A program made the position numbers and the translations under genes. Shown here one piece after another: positions 4,207 through 40,093 of a DNA stretch of 64,000 nucleotides (position 1 is its first letter; every line of letters starts with the position of its first letter). The notes below the pieces were generated by a model, which ran no database searches, had not been told where the DNA came from, and saw only the letters and a program-made list of their open reading frames with translations. The stretch covers positions 496,001 to 560,000 of the forward strand of contig NOWV01000016.1 in assembly GCA_003344405.1 (NCBI GenBank), written 5' to 3'. The DNA is from Trichoplax sp. H2. Its lineage: Eukaryota.

Positions 4207-5222
4207 AAAGTATCTTATTCACATTAAGCAAGGTATCATGAGCTGAAATCTTGTTCCAGATTGAATGATACGACTTTACGAGTATAACATCTAGAGATAT
4301 CATTAGAAATAGCCTTCATGCAGCATGGTGTGCTCGTTTGGCTAGTTATTGATAATTAATTATAAAAATCGAATTATGTAGACAGCCAGACATAGATTTG
4401 AGTGTCATAAATTGAACTCTCCATCGACGCAGTTACTAGCTGAAATCTTCTGCCAGATTGAATGATACGACTTTACGAGTATAACATCTATTGATATTAT
4501 TAGAAATAGCCTTCATACAGCATGGCGTGCTCGTTTGGCTAGTTATTGATAATTAATTATAAAAATCGAATTATGTTGACAGTCAGACATAGATTTGAGT
4601 GTCATAAATTGAACTCTCCATCGACGCAGTTACTAGCTGAAATCTTCTGCCAGGTTGAATGATACGACTTTACGAGTATAACATCTATTGCTATTATTAG
4701 AAATAGCCTTCATACAGTATGGTGTGCTCGTTTGGCTAGTTATTGATAATTAATTATAAAGATCGAATTATGCTGACAGTCAGATATAGATATCGACGCA
4801 GCTACTAGCTGAAATCTTCTGCCAGATTGAATGATACGACTTTACGAGTATAACATCTATTGATATTATTAGAAATAGCCTTCATGCAGCATGGTGTACG
4901 CGTTTGGCTAGTTATTGATAATTAATTATAAAAATCTTATTATGCTGACAGTCAGATATAGATTTGAGTGTCATAAATTGAACTCTCCATGAAGTATCTT
5001 ATTCACATTAAGCAAGGTATCATGAGCTGAAATCTTGTTCCAGATTGAATGATACGACTTTACGAGTATAACATCTATTGATATTATTAGAAATAGCCTT
5101 CATGCGGCATGGTGTGCTCGTTTGGCTAGTTATTGATAATTAATTATAAAAATGTAATTATGCTGGCAGTCAGATATAGATTTGAGTGTCATAAATTGAA
5201 CTCTCCATCGACGTTGTTACTA
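4207..5222. repeat. Tandem repeat with a unit of about 197 bp, 5 copies
   Basis: Unit starts agctgaaatctt...gattgaatgatacgactttacgagtataacatcta at about 4241, 4438, 4635, 4808 and 5025. Copies 1 and 5 share a distinct leader (aagtatcttattcacattaagcaaggtatcatg). Confidence 0.96.
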
Positions 5223-16351: not shown

Positions 16352-18580
16352 CAGTCTAGTACTGTACTCAGTCGGCTCCAGCTGACGTCTCCGTCCGTAA
16401 TCGAGGTTTGAGTTGCTCGCCATCAGCCGGACCGACGGCTGCAGCGTCATCAGTCCAGTCTACAGTACAGTAGAACTGTACTCAGTCGGCTCCAGTTGAC
16501 GTCTCCGAGGGTTGAGTCTTCCAACCAGTTGTTGGCCATCAGCCGGACCGACAGCTGAGTCATCAGTCCAGTCTAGAACTGTACTCAGTCGGCTCCAGCT
16601 GACGTCTCCGAGACTCCGTCCGTAATCGAGGTTTGAGTTGCTCGCCATCAGCCGGACCGACGGCTGCAGCGTCATCAGTCCAGTCTACAGTAGAACTGTA
16701 CTCAGTCGGCTCCAGCTGACGTCTCCGAGGCTTGAGTCTTGCAACCAGTTGTTGGCCATCAGCCGGACCGACAGCTGAGTCATCAGTCCAGTCTAGACTC
16801 TAGAACTGTACTCAGTCGGCTCCAGCTGACGTCTCCGAGGCTTGAGTCTTCCAACCAGTTGTTGGCCATCAGCCGGACCGACAGCTGAGTCATCAGTCCA
16901 GTCTAGAACTGTACTCAGTCGTCTCCAGGCTCCAGCTGACGTCTTCGAGACTCCGTCCATAATCGAGGTTTGAGTTGCTCGCCATCAGCCGGACCGACGG
17001 CTGCTGCGTCATCAGTCCAGCCATCAGCCGGACCGACAGCTGAGTCATCAGTCCAGTCTAGTACTGTACTGTACAGTATTCAGTCGGCTCCAGGCTCCAG
17101 CTGACGACTCCGAGACTCCGTAATCGAGGTTTGAGTTGCTCGCCATCAGCCGGACCGACGGCTGTAGCGTCATCAGTCCAGTCTAGAACTGTACACAGTC
17201 GGCTCCAGCTGACGTTTCCGAGGCTTGAGTCTTCCAACCAGTTGTTGGCCATCAGCCGGACCGACAGTTGAGTCATCAGTCCAGTCTAGAACTGCACTCA
17301 GTCGGCTCCAGCTGACGTTTCCGAGGCTTGAGTCTTCCAACCAGTTGTTGGCCATCAGCCGGACCGACAGCTGAGTCATCAGTCCAGTCTAGAACTGCAC
17401 TCAGTCGGCTCCAGCTGACGTTTCCGAGGCTTNNNNNNNNNNNNNNNNNNNNGACGGCTGCAGCGTCATCAGTCCAGTCTACAGTACAGTAGAACTGTAC
17501 TCAGTCGGCTCCAGTTGACGTCTCCGAGGGTTGAGTCTTCCAACCAGTTGTTGGCCATCAGCCGGACCGACAGCTGAGTCATCAGTCCAGTCTAGAACTG
17601 TACTCAGTCGGCTCCAGCTGACGTCTCCGAGACTCCGTCCGTAATCGAGGTTTGAGTTGCTCGCCATCAGCCGGACCGACGGCTGCAGCGTCATCAGTCC
17701 AGTCTACAGTAGAACTGCACTCAGTCGGCTCCAGCTGACGTCTCCGAGGTTTGAGTGACTCTACTTGAGTCTTCCAACTAGTTGTTGGCCATCAGCCGGA
17801 CCGACAGCTGAGTCATCAGTCCAGTCTAGATTCTAGAACTGTACTCAGTCGGCTCCAGCTGACGTCTCCGAGACTCCGTAATCGAGGTTTGAGTTGCTCG
17901 CCATCAGCCGGACCGACGGCTGCAGCGTCATCAGTCCAGTCTACAGTAGAACTGTACTCAGTCGGCTCCAGCTGACGTCTCCGAGGCTTGAGTCTTGCAA
18001 CCAGTTGTTGGCCATCAGCCGGACCGACAGCTGAGTCATCAGTCCAGTCTAGACTCTAGAACTGTACTCAGTCGGCTCCAGCTGACGTTTCCGAGGCTTG
18101 AGTCTTCCAACCAGTTGTTGGCCATCAGCCGGACCGACAGCTGAGTCATCAGTCCAGTCTAGAACTGTACTCAGTCGGCTCCAGCTGACGTCTCCGAGAC
18201 TCCGTTAATCGAGGCTTGAGTCTTCAATCCAGTTGTTAGTCATCAGCCGGACCGACAGCTGAGTCATCCATCTAGTCTAAAACTGTACGCAATCGGCTCC
18301 AGGCTGACGTTTCCGAGACTCCGTAATCGAGGCTTGAGTCTTGGATCGAGTTGTTCACCATCAGCCGGACCGACGGCAGAGTCATCGGTCCAGTCTAGAA
18401 CTGTACTTGACGTCCTGTGACCGTTGACGATCCAGTTGAAGTGACCGCTTACCTCCTACCGTATGCATTTTCACTCTAGTACTGTACTGTACTCAGTCGG
18501 CTGCAGGTGACGTCTGCGAACTGCGTAATCGAGGCTTGAGTCTTGGACCCAGTGGTTGGCCGTCAGCCGGACCGACGGAG
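16352..18580. repeat. GC-rich complex tandem repeat (two interleaved unit types of about 100-120 bp), interrupted by a 20-N gap at 17433-17452
   Basis: Shared core tcagtccagtcta(gaactgtac)tcagtcggctccagctgacgtctccgag...gccatcagccggaccgac, with alternative middles gcttgagtcttccaaccagttgttg or actccgtaatcgaggtttgagttgctc. Copies degenerate at both ends. Confidence 0.97.
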
Positions 18581-32386: not shown

Positions 32387-33204
32387 TTCGATCGGAAGTA
32401 GTTGCTATGGCTTTCCTGTTGGCAATATCATCGCAAGAGCCAAAAGGATTTTGCTCACAAGTTAGTCAGCTTTTCCAGACCTCCAGCAGTCCGTAGTGCG
32501 TACAGGACAGGCTGTACAGTGTACAGTGTACAGTACTGTATCAGCGACTATTACAGCTAGAGTAAACTGACTGAAGAAAGCGATTGTCAGTGTCAACGAC
32601 TTGCTGACTATTTCTCTGGTGATTTCGACTATGGAGTACATCTAAAACTGTACACTGTACTAGCTACGCCTGGAAATGGCTACCAAGTGGGTTGCATACA
32701 GTACTGTGTGCAGTTCCAGTCTTCCGATAGAGCGAAATGATAAGTAAAATAGTCAGCCTCCCCATTTTTTTCAATGCAAAATGGTTGACAGTCTCTCTCT
32801 CACTCTTTCTTTGAGTAATGTCGTCACTGAACTGTACAGTAGTGACATTACTTTCGCTCGAGATTTTCAAAGTTGTCTACTTGTTTGACTTTATATTGGG
32901 TCTACGTCATCCATTGTCCTCACAATAGCCGATATCGTCGATTACTGCATACTGTAGATAATACGGAACATCACCAACAAGGTAGTGTAGGGCAAATCAT
33001 GTCATTAGTTATGCTTCGACGCAAAATCACTGTCAGTGGGTGACGCCATTTCTTATCCTGACACTACTATCTGTACTAGAGTGTGCTAATCCAATGTCTA
33101 GAGTGGGCAGAGTGTACTGTATTATCATTCAATCGCTAGTAGAGATCATAAAGGAACCAAACCTTTCTCAGATCTAATCGCTACAGCATCGTGACACGCT
33201 GCAT

Positions 33205-33331
33205 TGGACGAATAACCATAGGAGGTCCAGTACGGTCCATGAAAGTATAGGTTTTATATGAAATGTCATACTAAATCATATAAATACGATTTGGACGAAT
33301 AGCCATCGAGGTCCAGTACGGTCCATGAAAG
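33205..33331. repeat. Direct repeat of about 41 bp (period about 86)
   Basis: ttggacgaata.ccat..gaggtccagtacggtccatgaaag at about 33205 and 33291. Confidence 0.85.
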
Positions 33332-33797
33332 CATACTGGACACTAACCCTAACATGAGCAGTGGACAGTAGTAAGTCATTCAGATGTCAATCGCAGACTG
33401 TAGACGGTACACCTGCGCGCTTTACAGACATACGGAGTTACGGACGTAGTTAAAACGACCAGTCCAAGAATCAGCCTTGCAATGATTCGTATCGTCAATG
33501 AGCGTTTGCTGTCCCGTTCCTTTCTTTTCTTAGTTTTGAGTAGTCCCTGCAGGCTGTTACTGTGTAACTTGATCGATTTCAACTTGAAATGTGAACTCAT
33601 GTAAAGTGCAAACGTCGGCCGATCAACGTTTACTGTCTGCACCTTTGCACAATCTGACTCACTCATGATAACCCAAACGCAGTTCCACCATTTCTTTCCA
33701 TACAGTACGTCTAGCTAGACCCATGGCTGCTCAGATGAATTGGATAGCGCAGTACACCACTCTACCGCTTGACCGGCACAGTACATTGCGTACAGTA
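33309..33797 (+). ncRNA. Candidate telomerase RNA (template plus H/ACA domain); ends inferred
   Basis: TATAAATA 33279-33286; 8-bp hairpin 33311-33341; CTAACCCTAAC 33343-33353; stem 33538-33545/33725-33732 followed by H box AGATGA 33733-33738; 3' hairpin 33747-33791, then ACA 33792-33794. The pseudoknot is not clearly resolved. Confidence 0.5.
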
Positions 33798-34584
33798 TGT
33801 ACTAAAAGCTGGCAACTCTGGTTGACAGTCAATCATACTGGAAGTGAACGTTGGCGAACGTGTACTGTTGACAGCAGTGTCAAGTCTTCTGCTCACGATA
33901 CTGTACAGTGTACTAAATTGCCAACCAACAGTGGACACCTTTTTGAACATAAGACTGTCTAGTACAATGGAATCCGTTTTTTCCCTATGATTGAAGAGTA
34001 AAAACTACAAGTAAAACGCTTCAAAAAGACCAATCGTCATCCACCTTCCTATATAGATCAATTTCTTCTAGACAGTCCTTGTTCAAACCATGCATTTGCG
34101 ATCGATTTTGTACAAATTGATGCAAAAATTGGAGTATCCAATGGATCAGTTGACTGCACTGTCCAATCGGCTTCCATATACAGTACGTTCAAAAGGATAT
34201 CACTAGTCATGGGTGACATTATTTCTCATCCTGGACCTAATGTGGTACATAATATAGTAGTATATGGTGTGCTAATTTAATGTCCACAGCCGCCATCGTC
34301 GGTCCCATTGGTACGGTGGCCGAGAGGGGCCACTGCTCTACAGTGCACAACTCCTGCGGGCAAATGATAGACAGTAGAGGAGGAGTACAGTGTGGACTAT
34401 ACTTGTCTGTGTGGTGTTTGAGTACTGAGACAATGGCCACAGTCCAGAGTACAGTAAAGAAAGTACTGTACTCACTTTCGCCCACTGGACAAATGGACGG
34501 TCGGACAACGGACGACCTGTGCGCCACACCAACGTGGTGTCCTAGTGTCTGCCGCTCGCTATACAAGGTCTGATACAAAACGAA

Positions 34585-36455
34585 ATGCCAATCATGGACA
34601 ACGACATGGTAGAGTAAGTTGGATCCATTTGAACATTCTTCATCATCGTCTATATATGTTGTCTAGTTAGGCCATAATATAGATAGTATCTCATTTTCTT
34701 TTCTCATTTCAATTGTAGTTCCAACGCAACGTGGGGAGAAAGAATGGAAAATGAGGGTTAGTTGATGATGATATCGTCTAGATAATGGATGCAGTAATAT
34801 TTGGCATGCAACCATCGGTAGTCCATCTAGCCGGCTTTTCATCATGCTAGTTGGTGCTAAATTGTTGATGACAAGGAGTGTTGATATTTCGTGTTGATTT
34901 ACATTACTGATGAAATAAAGTAGATGTAGACGTTATGAAGTAGAGGATGAGTGGAGAGACTATTTTACCAATTTCAAGATTGCTTGTCCTATCTAGACGA
35001 TGAGTCCTCAAGTCCTAAGGTGGAAATTCTGGATAACGGTATTAAAATCGTAGAAGAAGAGAGAACAGAGGGCAACAGAAAATTTCTGGTAAGATCCTGT
35101 CGTTGTTATGCTTGCTATTCGCTGTTATCACAGCCACCTTGAAAATGAAAATGTTCAATCTACCAGATAGCAAAGAGTAACGCTTTCATACTACTGTACT
35201 CAATTGTTGATCTTCAACAAAGTCTTGAAGACTAATGCCGATGTATGATGGCTAATGCTTGTAGGTTAAACGAACATTTCGCATTGAAAACAAGAGAGTT
35301 CCTAAACCGGTTGCTGAAAGAAAGGTAGGACAATTGACCGACAAATAAATTATCAACTCCATTTGATGACAGTTGGAATGCTGACGTGCGGCCATTCCAT
35401 TGACGACTTGAAACGCTTGTGATAATGATTTGTCCATGCTTTGCAATAGGCTTGGAAGAAATTTGGTGCATCTACTGAAGATCCTAAAGGTCCTAGTTCT
35501 AGTACGACTAAAGTTGCTGAAGACACCTTCTTAGCATTTATAACAAATCGTGAAGTAAGTACAACCACAAACACTATTCAATACTAGCAACCGATAAAAG
35601 CATGAATTATCTTATTGGACTATAGGATAACAGTGACGAAAAGTCATTAAACAATATACCAAAAGAAAGATTTGGAACCTACAAAGCACCTTTTGCCGCT
35701 AATAAAGGTAATTAGTATGGATGATAAATACAGTACCTATCATTCAGTATTTCTCCAAAAACTTTTTCATCTGCTGTATGGCATCAATTTATAACCTTTA
35801 TCCATCTTACGTAGAAAATGCACGAAGTGAATTGTCTAGGATGGCCAGTAGTCAATTGGGAGTTGACAGTAAATATGTTGTACCAAGTCGAAGATTTGGA
35901 GGTAGTCAACTTGGTGACACTCTGGAATTATACAAGAGAGGTAAATTATAATTTTACTGTAGTATATTTTAACCAGGTATCATGGTACAACTATATTATC
36001 ATAATCTTTCGTAGACGATCAGAATACAGTCCGTGTATCCAACTTATCCGAGGATGCCGACGAAGCCGATCTTACTGACTTATTTAGACATTTTGGTCAA
36101 ATATCCAGAGTTTTTCTCGTTCGTGACAAAAAAACGCGTCGCTCAAAGGTCTTTTTAATCCTAAACTATTCTCTTAATGAGTATTGCGTAGAAATTGACC
36201 ACTTGAAACTTACTAATCAACATTTTCAATGTTTGCATCTTTTTATACAGTGCTTTGCTTTCATTAATTATAAGAATCGTGAAGATGCAGCATATGCCAT
36301 ATCTCAGTTAAATGGTTTCGCTTATGATCACTTACTCTTGGACGTCGAATGGGCAAAGTAAGATTTGAAAATGTTTCTTACGTGGCATAATACAGAGAAA
36401 TTGATGCTTATATCAATATTTCCCATTTCTTAATTGCAGGCCTCCTTCAAATTAA
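34585..36455 (+). CDS. EIF3G: Eukaryotic translation initiation factor 3 subunit G
   Basis: Exons 34585-34613, 34719-34756, 34997-35088, 35265-35324, 35450-35554, 35626-35707, 35815-35940, 36015-36148, 36251-36357, 36440-36455. Motifs: VPKPVAERKAWKKFG, KYVVPSRR, and the RRM TVRVSNLSED...LNGFAYDHLLLDVEWAKP. Confidence 0.93.
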
Positions 36456-37468
36456 TTTGGTTTTTCCAATTTGTATCAATATTGTCGTATATATTAAGAG
36501 TCTTAATTAATTAATGCAATAACATATTGGTAAAATAAATTAAAACCCTATAAAATCAAGATCTAGACTTTTTTTCTATGCATAAAGCTTTTGTATCACA
36601 AGCTATTAATTAAAATAGTGACTAAATTCAAATTCGTATCGTGTTGCAAGCCAAAGTTGCGCATGCATTATTACTCCTGATACTTGGAATCATTAAGATG
36701 CTCATCTATTCTACTAAAGAATCTCTATGGATAAATGATAGAAAAAGTATAGCGCTACTTCGTAAAGACAGTATAACTACCACTGGAATAATGCATGAAT
36801 GTTAGTGTACTTCTTTACTATTATCTATATAATTACGTATAGTCAGTTTAGTAATGCCTTTTTGTCGATAAATGTATAAATTTACTTATGTAGGAACTTA
36901 TTTTGTCGATACATATCGATATATATAATAAAAGTCACTTTAGAATTCACATTTTTTGCTTGAATACAAGAATATAAAAATATTTTCTAATTGAACAGTA
37001 AATATTAGATAACATGTAATCAAATCACATGAAAATCTGAGGTTGCACTTTAATACAGTAGTCTGAAGCTGACTTCTATACAAAGCCTAAAAACTTTCAA
37101 TATAATACTAACATTGCTTGAGGCTATAATCGTCAACAGCAAGAATCAATTTTAGATAAATAGGTTAAAGAACCAATATTATATGTCTGTACCGTATACA
37201 AGTGCAACGCTCTTACATATGATACTGATCAGAATAACACAACGAGATGAAGTTCATTTCGCCAGCGAGACATTAGTGATGGAGCAAAATACGCGTAGAT
37301 TACAACAGCATTCGGTTTTTGCAACGTTGATTCTAACTAGTACTTTACGAATAATAAATGTGCTACTGCTTTCCTTTTTATTCCATAATCCATCTATTAA
37401 GCCTACAGCACACCCGTGATAAATTGATAATGTTCTAATTGTATCAAGATGTACAAAATCTTTAAAAA

Positions 37469-40093
37469 TTATTTAATTGACCAGAAAGTCGTTGGTTTAT
37501 TTTTTGCGTCCCTTTCCCTTTTCGCAAACCCGGAAAACGATGAAATGCAATTTACAATGGCATGTTCAGCTCTGCCAATAATTGCCAGCTCAACATGAGG
37601 CTCGGGGGGATTCAGGCTTACAATTCTAATCTAAAATTTTGAAAGAAATGAACGGTATAATCAGCGTGTTGTTATTTTCCCTAAAAGTCTAATATCATCA
37701 TCATCTGACAGATTAACTCGTATAAGTATCTACGTCCATACCTGCTCCTTTTTAAATTTCTGCTCTAATCTATCTCGTACGCTACTTTCGTCCGTTGCAA
37801 TAAAAACATTGGTAACGTTATACTTTCGGGCAATTCGTTTAGTCTGTCTGAAAATGTCATTTTCAGACGGATAACATACTTTATACGGTATTGGCTTGAC
37901 GTTATTATCTCCATAACACTGTGGCGATTCCATATAATTTTTAGCCTCGTGATCTTTTAAATGTTGGCAGGCCGATTTCTTAAGATGAATTAAATTAAAT
38001 TTCGCAAAATCCACGGTTAGTCTTAGGCTATTATTTGATGGCTTATAATGCAATTCGTTATGTTACTTATAAACATTCAGTCATTGCGTACCCAATCTGA
38101 ACCCATTCTTAAATGAATAGCAACAAATCGCTGCTTATCTAAGGAATCCTTTATGAAAGTCTTTACTTTTCCGGATATAAATTTAGACCATTTAACATAC
38201 TTGTGCAATAGCCGGTCGTGTGCTTTAACCGGAAAATCGCCTGGTGGGCCAGAGAAAGCCATCACTGGGTACTTTTCTGCTGGAAAACTATCATTAGATG
38301 AACCGTAGGTGAAACAGTTTGAATTTGAGCAGTACGTAAAATTAGATAATAACGTTACAATGATAATAGCTAATCCAAGCAATCATATCCAGATTGCTAT
38401 TGTGACATCATAACAAGATTTGAATTTAATTTATTGCAAACTGTATTTACTTTTGATTCCAAGCTGAACGAACGTGCTCATTAAATGAATAATAAGCGTT
38501 GCCACCACCAATCCTATTTCCATACTCTACGTACGATTTGAATTGAATTTCAAAATGATTCCAAAATGGACCAAATGGATTGCCCTCCTTCATTGCACAC
38601 TAAAGTATTAAAGCAATTGCAAAATCGATTCATTCCAATAAGTATTATTACAGTTACTGTAGTGGTCTACTATGCACAACAAAGGCAAAACTTTAATCAC
38701 CGTGATTTTATAAGATTAGAAAAATGAATCATCTTTATAACAGTATCCATACAATATCTCAAGGATATAGTAAATAGAGACCGACATGTATGACTATAAT
38801 ACCTGTTTATTCTCTCTGTAGTAAAAGTATTATTACAGTTACAGTAGTGGTCTACTATGCACAACACAGTCAAAACTTTAATCACCGTGATTTTATAAAA
38901 TTAGAAAAAATTAATCATCTTTATAACAGTATCCATACAATATCTCAAGGATATAGTAAATAGAGACGGACATATATGACTATAATACCTGCTTATTCTC
39001 TCTGTAGTAAAAGCAAAATCCGATCCGTTTGTTGGGTGGCCAAACAGTGGCAGCAAGATTACTCATGAATGTTTCCATGGTGATAACACGATGGTATTGG
39101 CTTAGAGGCTGTACTCGAATATATTTATCGAAAGGAATTTGAACCTTCCAATTTCAATTAAAATAGGCAATATAGTTACCAATAATCAAATGAATCAATT
39201 GCCAAAGCTAGGAAATCCGTTCTATAAGCATGTCATACAGTACAATACTCTACTATATCGTATAAAGATCAATACTACAGTATGGTATTATCAATATTAA
39301 TTTACAGATGTTCCAGGGCTCCATTCAGGGTATTCAACCCATGGGGGTAAAATTAATGTTCTATTCAATCCACGAGAAAATGAGAGAGAGCCTAGAAACT
39401 GATCAGCTTGATTACCCCAGCGACCTAGGATAAGCAAAGTTGATATTAGTATTTGCTAATACACCTGCATTTTTCTAGCTGCAACTTTTTCAATAGGAAG
39501 GATTATAATTATCGAGAATTGACATATCTGTCCAGTAATCCATATTTCAATTCAAGTGTACTGATCGGAAATTCATGGCATTGTACACTTATCATGACAT
39601 GGTAGAGCAATTACACTTGCAGCATGATTGTATAGGCGTATAGTCTATCAAAATTGTCATTTTATTTATAGGTATAATATTGTGATTACTGACTAACTGG
39701 AACGATCGCTTTAATAATCGTGTAATCAATAATAATTGTTAGCTCATTCTGTTGATGCTACTACTTGTCATCAACTGTACACTGTAGAGTACTGAAGCCA
39801 ATGTCAACAAGGTGAGCAGCAGCATGCATTCTTAAACTGATAGTGTTGAATTATCAGCGGGTAGAATATGAACATTTCTTGACACAATCCATACAATCTG
39901 GATTTAATAAGGTAGACTTACCCATACATGGACAGTAGGCAATATATCCGTTTGGATCAATAGCAATAGCTTGACCTACGTTGGCTTGATTGTCTTGATT
40001 CGCTGGATATTGCGTGCAAGAGCCAAAATTGATATCAAAAGGTACCACCAAGTGGATGGTTATCCATATCAAGAGACACTTGTAATAGTGCAT
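37469..40093 (-). CDS. POFUT1: GDP-fucose protein O-fucosyltransferase 1
   Basis: Exons 40093-39922, 39424-39306, 39144-38989, 38599-38451, 38287-38092, 37978-37742, 37630-37469. Motifs: [75 protein letters not shown]. Confidence 0.95.
38641..39012. repeat. Tandem duplication (unit about 185 bp) spanning the POFUT1 exon 3/intron 3 junction
   Basis: agtattattacagttac.gtagtggtctactatgcacaac...tataatacctg.ttattctctctgtagtaaaag occurs twice. Confidence 0.93.

Follow-up and report, generated by a model that had tools for sequence, protein, structure and literature searches.

A candidate telomerase RNA gene between SPOUT1 and EIF3G in Trichoplax

Does the gap between the SPOUT1 and EIF3G genes of Trichoplax hold the gene for the telomerase RNA (TR)? 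As reported by Hertel et al. in 2009, no TR could be found in Trichoplax (PMC2655684). The iterated Infernal models of Logeswaran, Li, Podlevsky and Chen (2020) have yielded 82 animal TRs, one of which, shown in their fig. 6C, comes from T. adhaerens (PMC8480181), the sequences being placed in GenBank, the Telomerase Database and the supplements; as described there, it is an Infernal prediction given without bench validation, and the two sponge TRs that were tested showed no activity in vitro, in rabbit reticulocyte lysate. According to the same description, the TRs of basal metazoans combine a P1.1 boundary helix, a template-pseudoknot domain (T-PK) to which a P2.1 stem is added, a CR4/5 of canonical form that includes P6.1, and a box H/ACA; P6.1 is called highly conserved, with stress on the U residues of its loop, 5' ends are predicted from the TATA box, and 3' ends are placed 3 nt after the ACA (PMC8480181). 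A preliminary description of the present locus, made within a 64,000-nucleotide stretch of Trichoplax sp. H2 DNA (the window), had proposed a TR of ~490 nt. Judged from its sequence, the locus is in our view likely to be the Trichoplax TR gene. The main claim of that description, with its TATA box, template-adjacent hairpin, 11-nt template and long arm running onto box H, hairpin and ACA, is well supported, but the length, the 3' end and the P6.1 and CAB assignments that it gave are not. The elements concerned are as follows.

33204-33249, plus strand: incomplete upstream duplicate, covering the promoter-proximal flank and ~27 nt at the start of the putative RNA (hairpin 5' arm), found as direct repeats by alignment
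33279-86, plus strand: TATA box TATAAATA, 32 nt ahead of the hairpin
33311-18 / 33334-41, plus strand: candidate P1.1-type template-boundary hairpin, GTCCAGTA / TACTGGAC, 8 Watson-Crick pairs and a 15-nt loop
33343-53, plus strand: candidate template CTAACCCTAAC, 1.8 repeats, with one unpaired A between hairpin and template
33356-33520, plus strand: core domain, closed by 33363-71 / 33506-14; the minimum-energy fold extends it to 33356-59 / 33517-20
33363-71 / 33506-14, plus strand: core helix GGACAGTAG / TTGCTGTCC, 9 pairs, of which 2 are G-U
33403-10 / 33489-96, plus strand: core helix GACGGTAC / GTATCGTC, 8 pairs, of which 1 is G-U
33515-33537, plus strand: U-rich tract with two T4 runs, 33525-28 and 33534-37
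33538-33732, plus strand: long arm, P4/P5-like, capped by a three-way junction (33586-33694) in the minimum-energy fold
33538-45 / 33725-32, plus strand: arm base GAGTAGTC / GGCTGCTC, 8 pairs, of which 2 are G-U
33558-64 / 33701-07, plus strand: arm helix TACTGTG / TACAGTA, 7 pairs
33733-38, plus strand: box H candidate AGATGA, directly after the last arm pair, with no gap
33747-33797, plus strand: 3' hairpin of the preliminary description (33747-91, loop CUUGAC), then ACA (33792-94) and GTA
33764-33830, plus strand: rival 3' hairpin (33764-33822), then ACA (33825-27) and 3 nt; excludes the hairpin at 33747-91

The two neighbouring genes are those that had been named. Exons on the minus strand at 29.1-31.1 kb match PF02598 (SPOUT1-type methyltransferase), and exons on the plus strand match eIF3g (PF12353) and an RRM. 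A minus-strand splice joint puts the first exon of SPOUT1 beyond 32366. EIF3G is represented by a spliced contig of run X9 spanning 34581-36708, with nine GT..AG introns of 71-240 nt, and adapter letters abutting the start of this contig suggest that the mRNA 5' end lies at 34581. The candidate is thus situated in a divergent intergenic gap of ~2 kb. A protein-coding reading of the locus was rejected, as none of its three ORFs has a Pfam match. An exon 4.3 kb downstream of the locus matches a single protein, a Trichoplax adhaerens fucosyltransferase (the source's own naming), and two fucosyltransferase exons are identical to this protein inside the exon bounds (64/64 and 79/79 residues); the window therefore belongs to T. 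adhaerens or a near-identical lineage. The intergenic gap has high-copy dispersed repeats on both sides, at 32507-32544 and 34085-34131, where depth in run X1 reaches 6828 and 1623, respectively, against ~100-120 around them, with many loose ends. Elsewhere, the window contains a GC-rich satellite of ~2 kb (16352-18406; units of ~103-118 bp, higher-order period 220-457, one N inside) and tandem duplications at 4241-5208 (units of 172-218 bp) and 38640-39013 (unit of 186 bp), 94-95% identical, the latter falling within the span of the fucosyltransferase gene.

In our hands, a base-by-base reading of 32900-34100 bore out every motif and helix coordinate given earlier. The 5' part carries most of what sets the locus apart. 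The 11-mer CTAACCCTAAC occurs once in the window, both strands included, where 0.02 copies are expected (it was present in 2 of 100 shuffles). It is complementary to the telomere repeat of Trichoplax, which we take to be TTAGGG, and spans more than one repeat, as the template of a metazoan H/ACA-type TR does; it would direct GGTTAG synthesis. The hairpin at 33311-33341 ends 1 nt before it, on the 5' side of the template where a P1.1 boundary helix lies. With a predicted energy of -12.3 kcal/mol (z -3.31), this hairpin is matched in stability by 0 of 200 shuffles, and it is also present in the full-length fold. Perfect hairpins of at least 8 bp (loop 3-30) are frequent in the window, with 112 on the plus strand where block shuffles average 58.8, and they end at 0.16% of positions; among the 224 on both strands, the P1.1 candidate is the one that has at least 7 nt of telomeric C-strand within 3 nt downstream. 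It lies outside any repeat family, the GTCCAG excess of the window stemming from the satellite at 16-18 kb. A TATAAA lies 24-38 nt upstream of only ~1.5% of positions, and the distance from the TATA box would put the transcription start near 33309. In sea urchin, P1.1 is described as acting as the template boundary (PMC4712671), and by analogy with this and with the animal TRs of PMC8480181 the hairpin may have the same function here.

The promoter region is also marked by a duplication. The 46 nt at 33204-49 and 33291-336 are direct duplicates, 94-96% identical and spaced by 86-87 nt, which indicates that part of the locus was duplicated in tandem in the past. The upstream copy is devoid of both the 3' arm of the hairpin and the template, and the TATA box separates it from the downstream one.

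Downstream of the template, the core at 33356-33520 is presumed to be the template-pseudoknot domain. Its fold is not better than those of shuffles (z -0.97, as stable in 38 of 200). The preliminary description had cautioned that a canonical triple-helix pseudoknot could not be assigned, and the caution holds: in a search on the single sequence for a stem, a U-run, a second stem and an A-rich loop, with UUU/AAA P3 pairs required, the best score for a canonical pseudoknot (P2b/P3 with a U-A.U triple helix) was 17, inside the range of 15-24 seen in 30 shuffles. The U-tract segment 33533-39 has as its sole perfect partner the A-run in a core hairpin loop at 33451-57, and a second U-run lies directly beside this A-run.

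In the long arm, the complementarity of 33586-97 with 33681-94 was confirmed, and the three-way junction is the minimum-energy fold of the arm, composed of a long hairpin at ~33600-49 and a short one at 33652-69 with the loop CUCAC. As modelled, the cap would be CR4/5-like in topology. The stability of the arm is marginal (33536-33734, -46.3 kcal/mol, z -1.73, as stable in 10 of 200 shuffles). The short hairpin had been likened to P6.1, an assignment for which we find no support, its loop CUCAC being off consensus. A hairpin at 33781-93 fits the P6.1 loop pattern better, but overlaps the 3' hairpin; the reading in which this element, GUAC-AUUGC-GUAC, is the genuine P6.1 and the H/ACA domain lies beyond it was rejected, as neither a box H nor a P5/P6 helix that would support it was found.

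At the level of motifs, the 3' part contains a box H/hairpin/ACA domain, with AGATGA (33733-38) conforming to ANANNA, followed by a hairpin and an ACA at 33792. The hairpin at 33747-91 is the minimum-energy fold of 33739-91, and its geometry fits H/ACA, but its stability is ordinary (-9.5 kcal/mol, z +0.24, as stable in 114 of 200 shuffles). The rival hairpin at 33764-33822 has double that stability (-19.4 kcal/mol, z -1.93, as stable in 9 of 200 shuffles) and is present in the minimum-energy fold of 33309-33830, with an ACA 2 nt after it. The H/ACA geometry is nevertheless better in the 33747-91 version, in which box H adjoins the arm and the hairpin closes 1 nt before the ACA. The 3' end is therefore ambiguous, with the ACA at either 33792 or 33825, and the exact end and the length of ~490 nt proposed earlier lose their support to the rival ACA at 33825 behind the more stable hairpin. 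The suggestion of a CAB-like loop is not supported either. The CAB box consensus is UGAG; the loop CUUGAC of the 3' hairpin has UGAC and so departs from it, CAB being in any case not a defining feature. To gauge how common such tails are, a composite H/ACA-like filter was applied, which requires a long-range helix of 8 pairs that ends 0-2 nt ahead of ANANNA, and a single hairpin of -9 kcal/mol or lower closing at most 2 nt from an ACA. It returned 20 sites in 128 kb, the box H of the candidate among them, and such a tail lies 350-520 nt downstream for only 1.6-1.9% of positions. Just beyond the locus, at 33850-33925, there is a long well-paired hairpin made largely of GTACTGT/ACAGTAC words, which as a whole is not above shuffles (z -0.56); behind it, ACA, CCT and a T5 run occupy 33935-44. 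A 3' end at 33940, using the ACA at 33935 with the CCT and T5 run, was rejected, as no ANANNA box precedes the ~100-nt hairpin.

Measured as a whole, the molecule does not stand out. The predicted fold of the 489-nt form is no better than shuffles (z +0.59, 76 of 100 shuffles as stable), and the same is true of the 522-nt form, 33309-33830 (z -0.24). The covariance-model search that had been proposed as a check gave no Rfam match in the window at gathering score, telomerase families included; at E up to 10, over 33100-34000, it gave three unrelated weak matches, none of them to a telomerase or snoRNA family. To our knowledge, the Rfam model of animal telomerase RNA, presumably Telomerase-vert, covers vertebrates only. 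The words ACTGTA, TACAGT, ACAGTA, TACTGT and CTGTAC are enriched 4.5- to 6.8-fold (~5-fold) over expectation in the window and concentrate in its GC-richer bins, with peaks at 16-18, 32-34 and 46-48 kb (63 in the 46-48 kb bin). This excess possibly reflects a motif of promoter regions or a short dispersed repeat, and it means that helices built of such words, as well as ACA triplets, arise easily here; several of the helices listed above and all candidate ACA boxes are in fact built from them.

The locus was compared with contigs of four sequencing runs, X1, X2, X4 and X9, out of 20 listed as containing it, none of which is recorded as RNA. In three of these four (X1, X2 and X4) the cover extends equally over introns and intergenic DNA, so that they behave as DNA, whereas X9 has a spliced EIF3G contig (depth 151) and hence contains RNA. 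Over the candidate, X9 has a 246-nt contig (33481-33726) of depth 4.5, with low cover further downstream; as the SPOUT1-intron contigs of this run have depths of 2.5-4.3, the cover matches its intronic depth and is neutral on expression. Depth over the candidate equals that of the flanks in all three DNA-like runs, which makes the locus single copy, with no near-identical second copy. The candidate TR gene would thus probably be a single-copy gene, and probably one transcribed by RNA polymerase II; a polymerase III transcript is unlikely in view of the two internal T4 runs. Among the differences listed are variants at 33302, 33412 and 33415 and an extra T behind 33524 (run X4, one lineage), and none of those listed falls in the template in the three DNA runs. 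Two of them, 33412 and 33415, are core positions; the change at 33415 disrupts a predicted pair, and the differences listed include none that would compensate for it. Lineage differences amount to ~1-2% in candidate and flanks alike, too few to show constraint or covariation. A metagenome scan with a 21-nt stretch of the locus gave 0 matches, and one with a neighbouring exon gave no relative among 417 pattern matches.

How far might these features have come together by accident? When the rarities of template, hairpin, TATA box and H/ACA tail are multiplied, the joint expectation is ~3e-8 per window or, as a rough estimate with 6 template permutations and ~1,560 windows of a ~100-Mb genome, ~3e-4 per genome, on criteria that were partly picked, and a tail filter that was written, after the locus was seen. 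Even a hundred-fold relaxation of the filter leaves the joint expectation well under one. A chance assembly, namely intergenic or promoter DNA in which a telomere-like 11-mer came to lie beside a hairpin while the other helices and the ACA arose from the ACTGTA/TACAGT excess, draws strength from the 5-fold word enrichment with its peak in the 32-34 kb bin, from a whole-molecule fold not above shuffles and from the negative pseudoknot and Rfam searches, and with very many windows scanned, rare coincidences will surface. We nonetheless hold it to be improbable, given that the expectation per genome is so low with all template permutations allowed, and that the P1.1 hairpin is not of the repeat family and is alone among 224 hairpins in abutting telomeric sequence.

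The geometry of the H/ACA-like tail and the position in a bidirectional promoter gap would equally suit some other non-coding transcript with an incidental 11-mer, for instance a sno/scaRNA of H/ACA type or an RNA associated with the EIF3G or SPOUT1 promoter. This is quite improbable in our judgement: no snoRNA family was matched at E up to 10, and a ~490-nt snoRNA with a 5' template and a boundary module would carry what are described in PMC8480181 as the defining traits of an animal TR. The 46-nt copy 86-87 nt upstream, as a sign of local duplication, raises the further question of whether the locus is a TR paralogue or a decaying duplicate, the working TR gene being elsewhere in the genome, and the off-consensus pseudoknot, P6.1 and CAB features would agree with decay. 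The flank-like depth in the DNA runs, however, speaks against a near-identical second copy, and the template, boundary hairpin, TATA box and boxes H and ACA are all intact, so that we consider this reading very improbable.

One TR gene per genome is normal. For this reason, and because the locus has the features used by the pipeline of PMC8480181, the TR gene proposed here and the T. adhaerens TR of that paper are most likely one and the same gene, which would make the present finding a rediscovery, the comparison being with the published description of that RNA. As described, both come from the same species or a near-identical lineage and share a template-adjacent P1.1, a TTAGGG template, a central three-way junction and a box H/ACA, with a TATA box to define the 5' end and an ACA 3 nt short of the 3' end; the canonical CR4/5 with P6.1, the P2.1 stem and the pseudoknot that are described for the published RNA are not confidently recognised here (PMC8480181). 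Since the published 'canonical' pseudoknot and P6.1 cannot be reconciled with the single sequence at hand, there is a small chance that the published locus is a different one, or that choices made in the alignment underlie the published structure. It is also conceivable, though unlikely, that the placozoan TR is less canonical than published, with no standard P2b/P3 triple-helix pseudoknot, a hairpin at the P6.1 position that lacks the conserved loop residues, and a 33533-39/33451-57 triplex of inverted strand order, or else that the published TR is something other than this locus, in which case one or other assignment is mistaken. Going by title or start of abstract, none of the other papers listed in the literature search concerns a placozoan TR, and a 28-nt stretch of the locus was found in no paper by full-text search.

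The candidate can further be set beside the P1.1-type TRs of other animals, as these are described for sea urchin, acorn worm and apple snail (PMC4712671, PMC8480181). The order of the parts is the same, P1.1 lies within a few nucleotides of the template, and the size is similar, ~490 nt against the 408-436 nt of the two validated TRs in PMC8480181. The boundary of the apple snail TR, as described, moves when an insertion is made behind nt 32, in the interval from P1.1 to the template; in the present candidate, nt 3-33 would form the hairpin and nt 35-45 the template. On the other hand, there is no detectable sequence similarity to these published RNAs, the candidate core is multi-branched without an assignable triple helix, and the template has 11 nt, compared with the 8 nt given for apple snail. 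With vertebrate TR the candidate shares an 11-nt template of the same type, a central three-way junction and an H/ACA tail. It differs in that no Rfam model matched at E up to 10 and in that the boundary would be set by P1.1, not P1; a start near 33309 would leave no room for the 5' strand of P1.

For transcription, both RNA ends, protein binding and activity, we infer the following scheme from the arrangement of these elements. Transcription would start ~25-30 nt after the TATA box, near 33309, and the first 33 nt of the RNA would fold into the P1.1 hairpin abutting the template, so that reverse transcription would stop after C33343. TERT would copy CUAACCCUAAC into GGTTAG repeats, with the core at 33356-33520 (T-PK) and the three-way-junction arm at 33538-33732 (CR4/5-like) acting as two presumptive TERT-binding domains. 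Box H, the 3' hairpin and the ACA would recruit dyskerin-type H/ACA proteins, which might keep the RNA stable and fix its 3' terminus 3 nt beyond the ACA, either at 33797 or at 33830.

With the T. adhaerens TR already in print (PMC8480181), the gain from the present work is mainly a check of a published prediction, the canonical elements of which are not obvious from the single sequence. If confirmed, the locus would provide exact coordinates and a SPOUT1-EIF3G neighbourhood for the TR of an early-branching animal, and would, through synteny, make it easier to find orthologues in other placozoans. It would moreover allow one to test the ancestry of the pseudoknot and of P6.1 in animals, for which PMC8480181, as described there, has argued.
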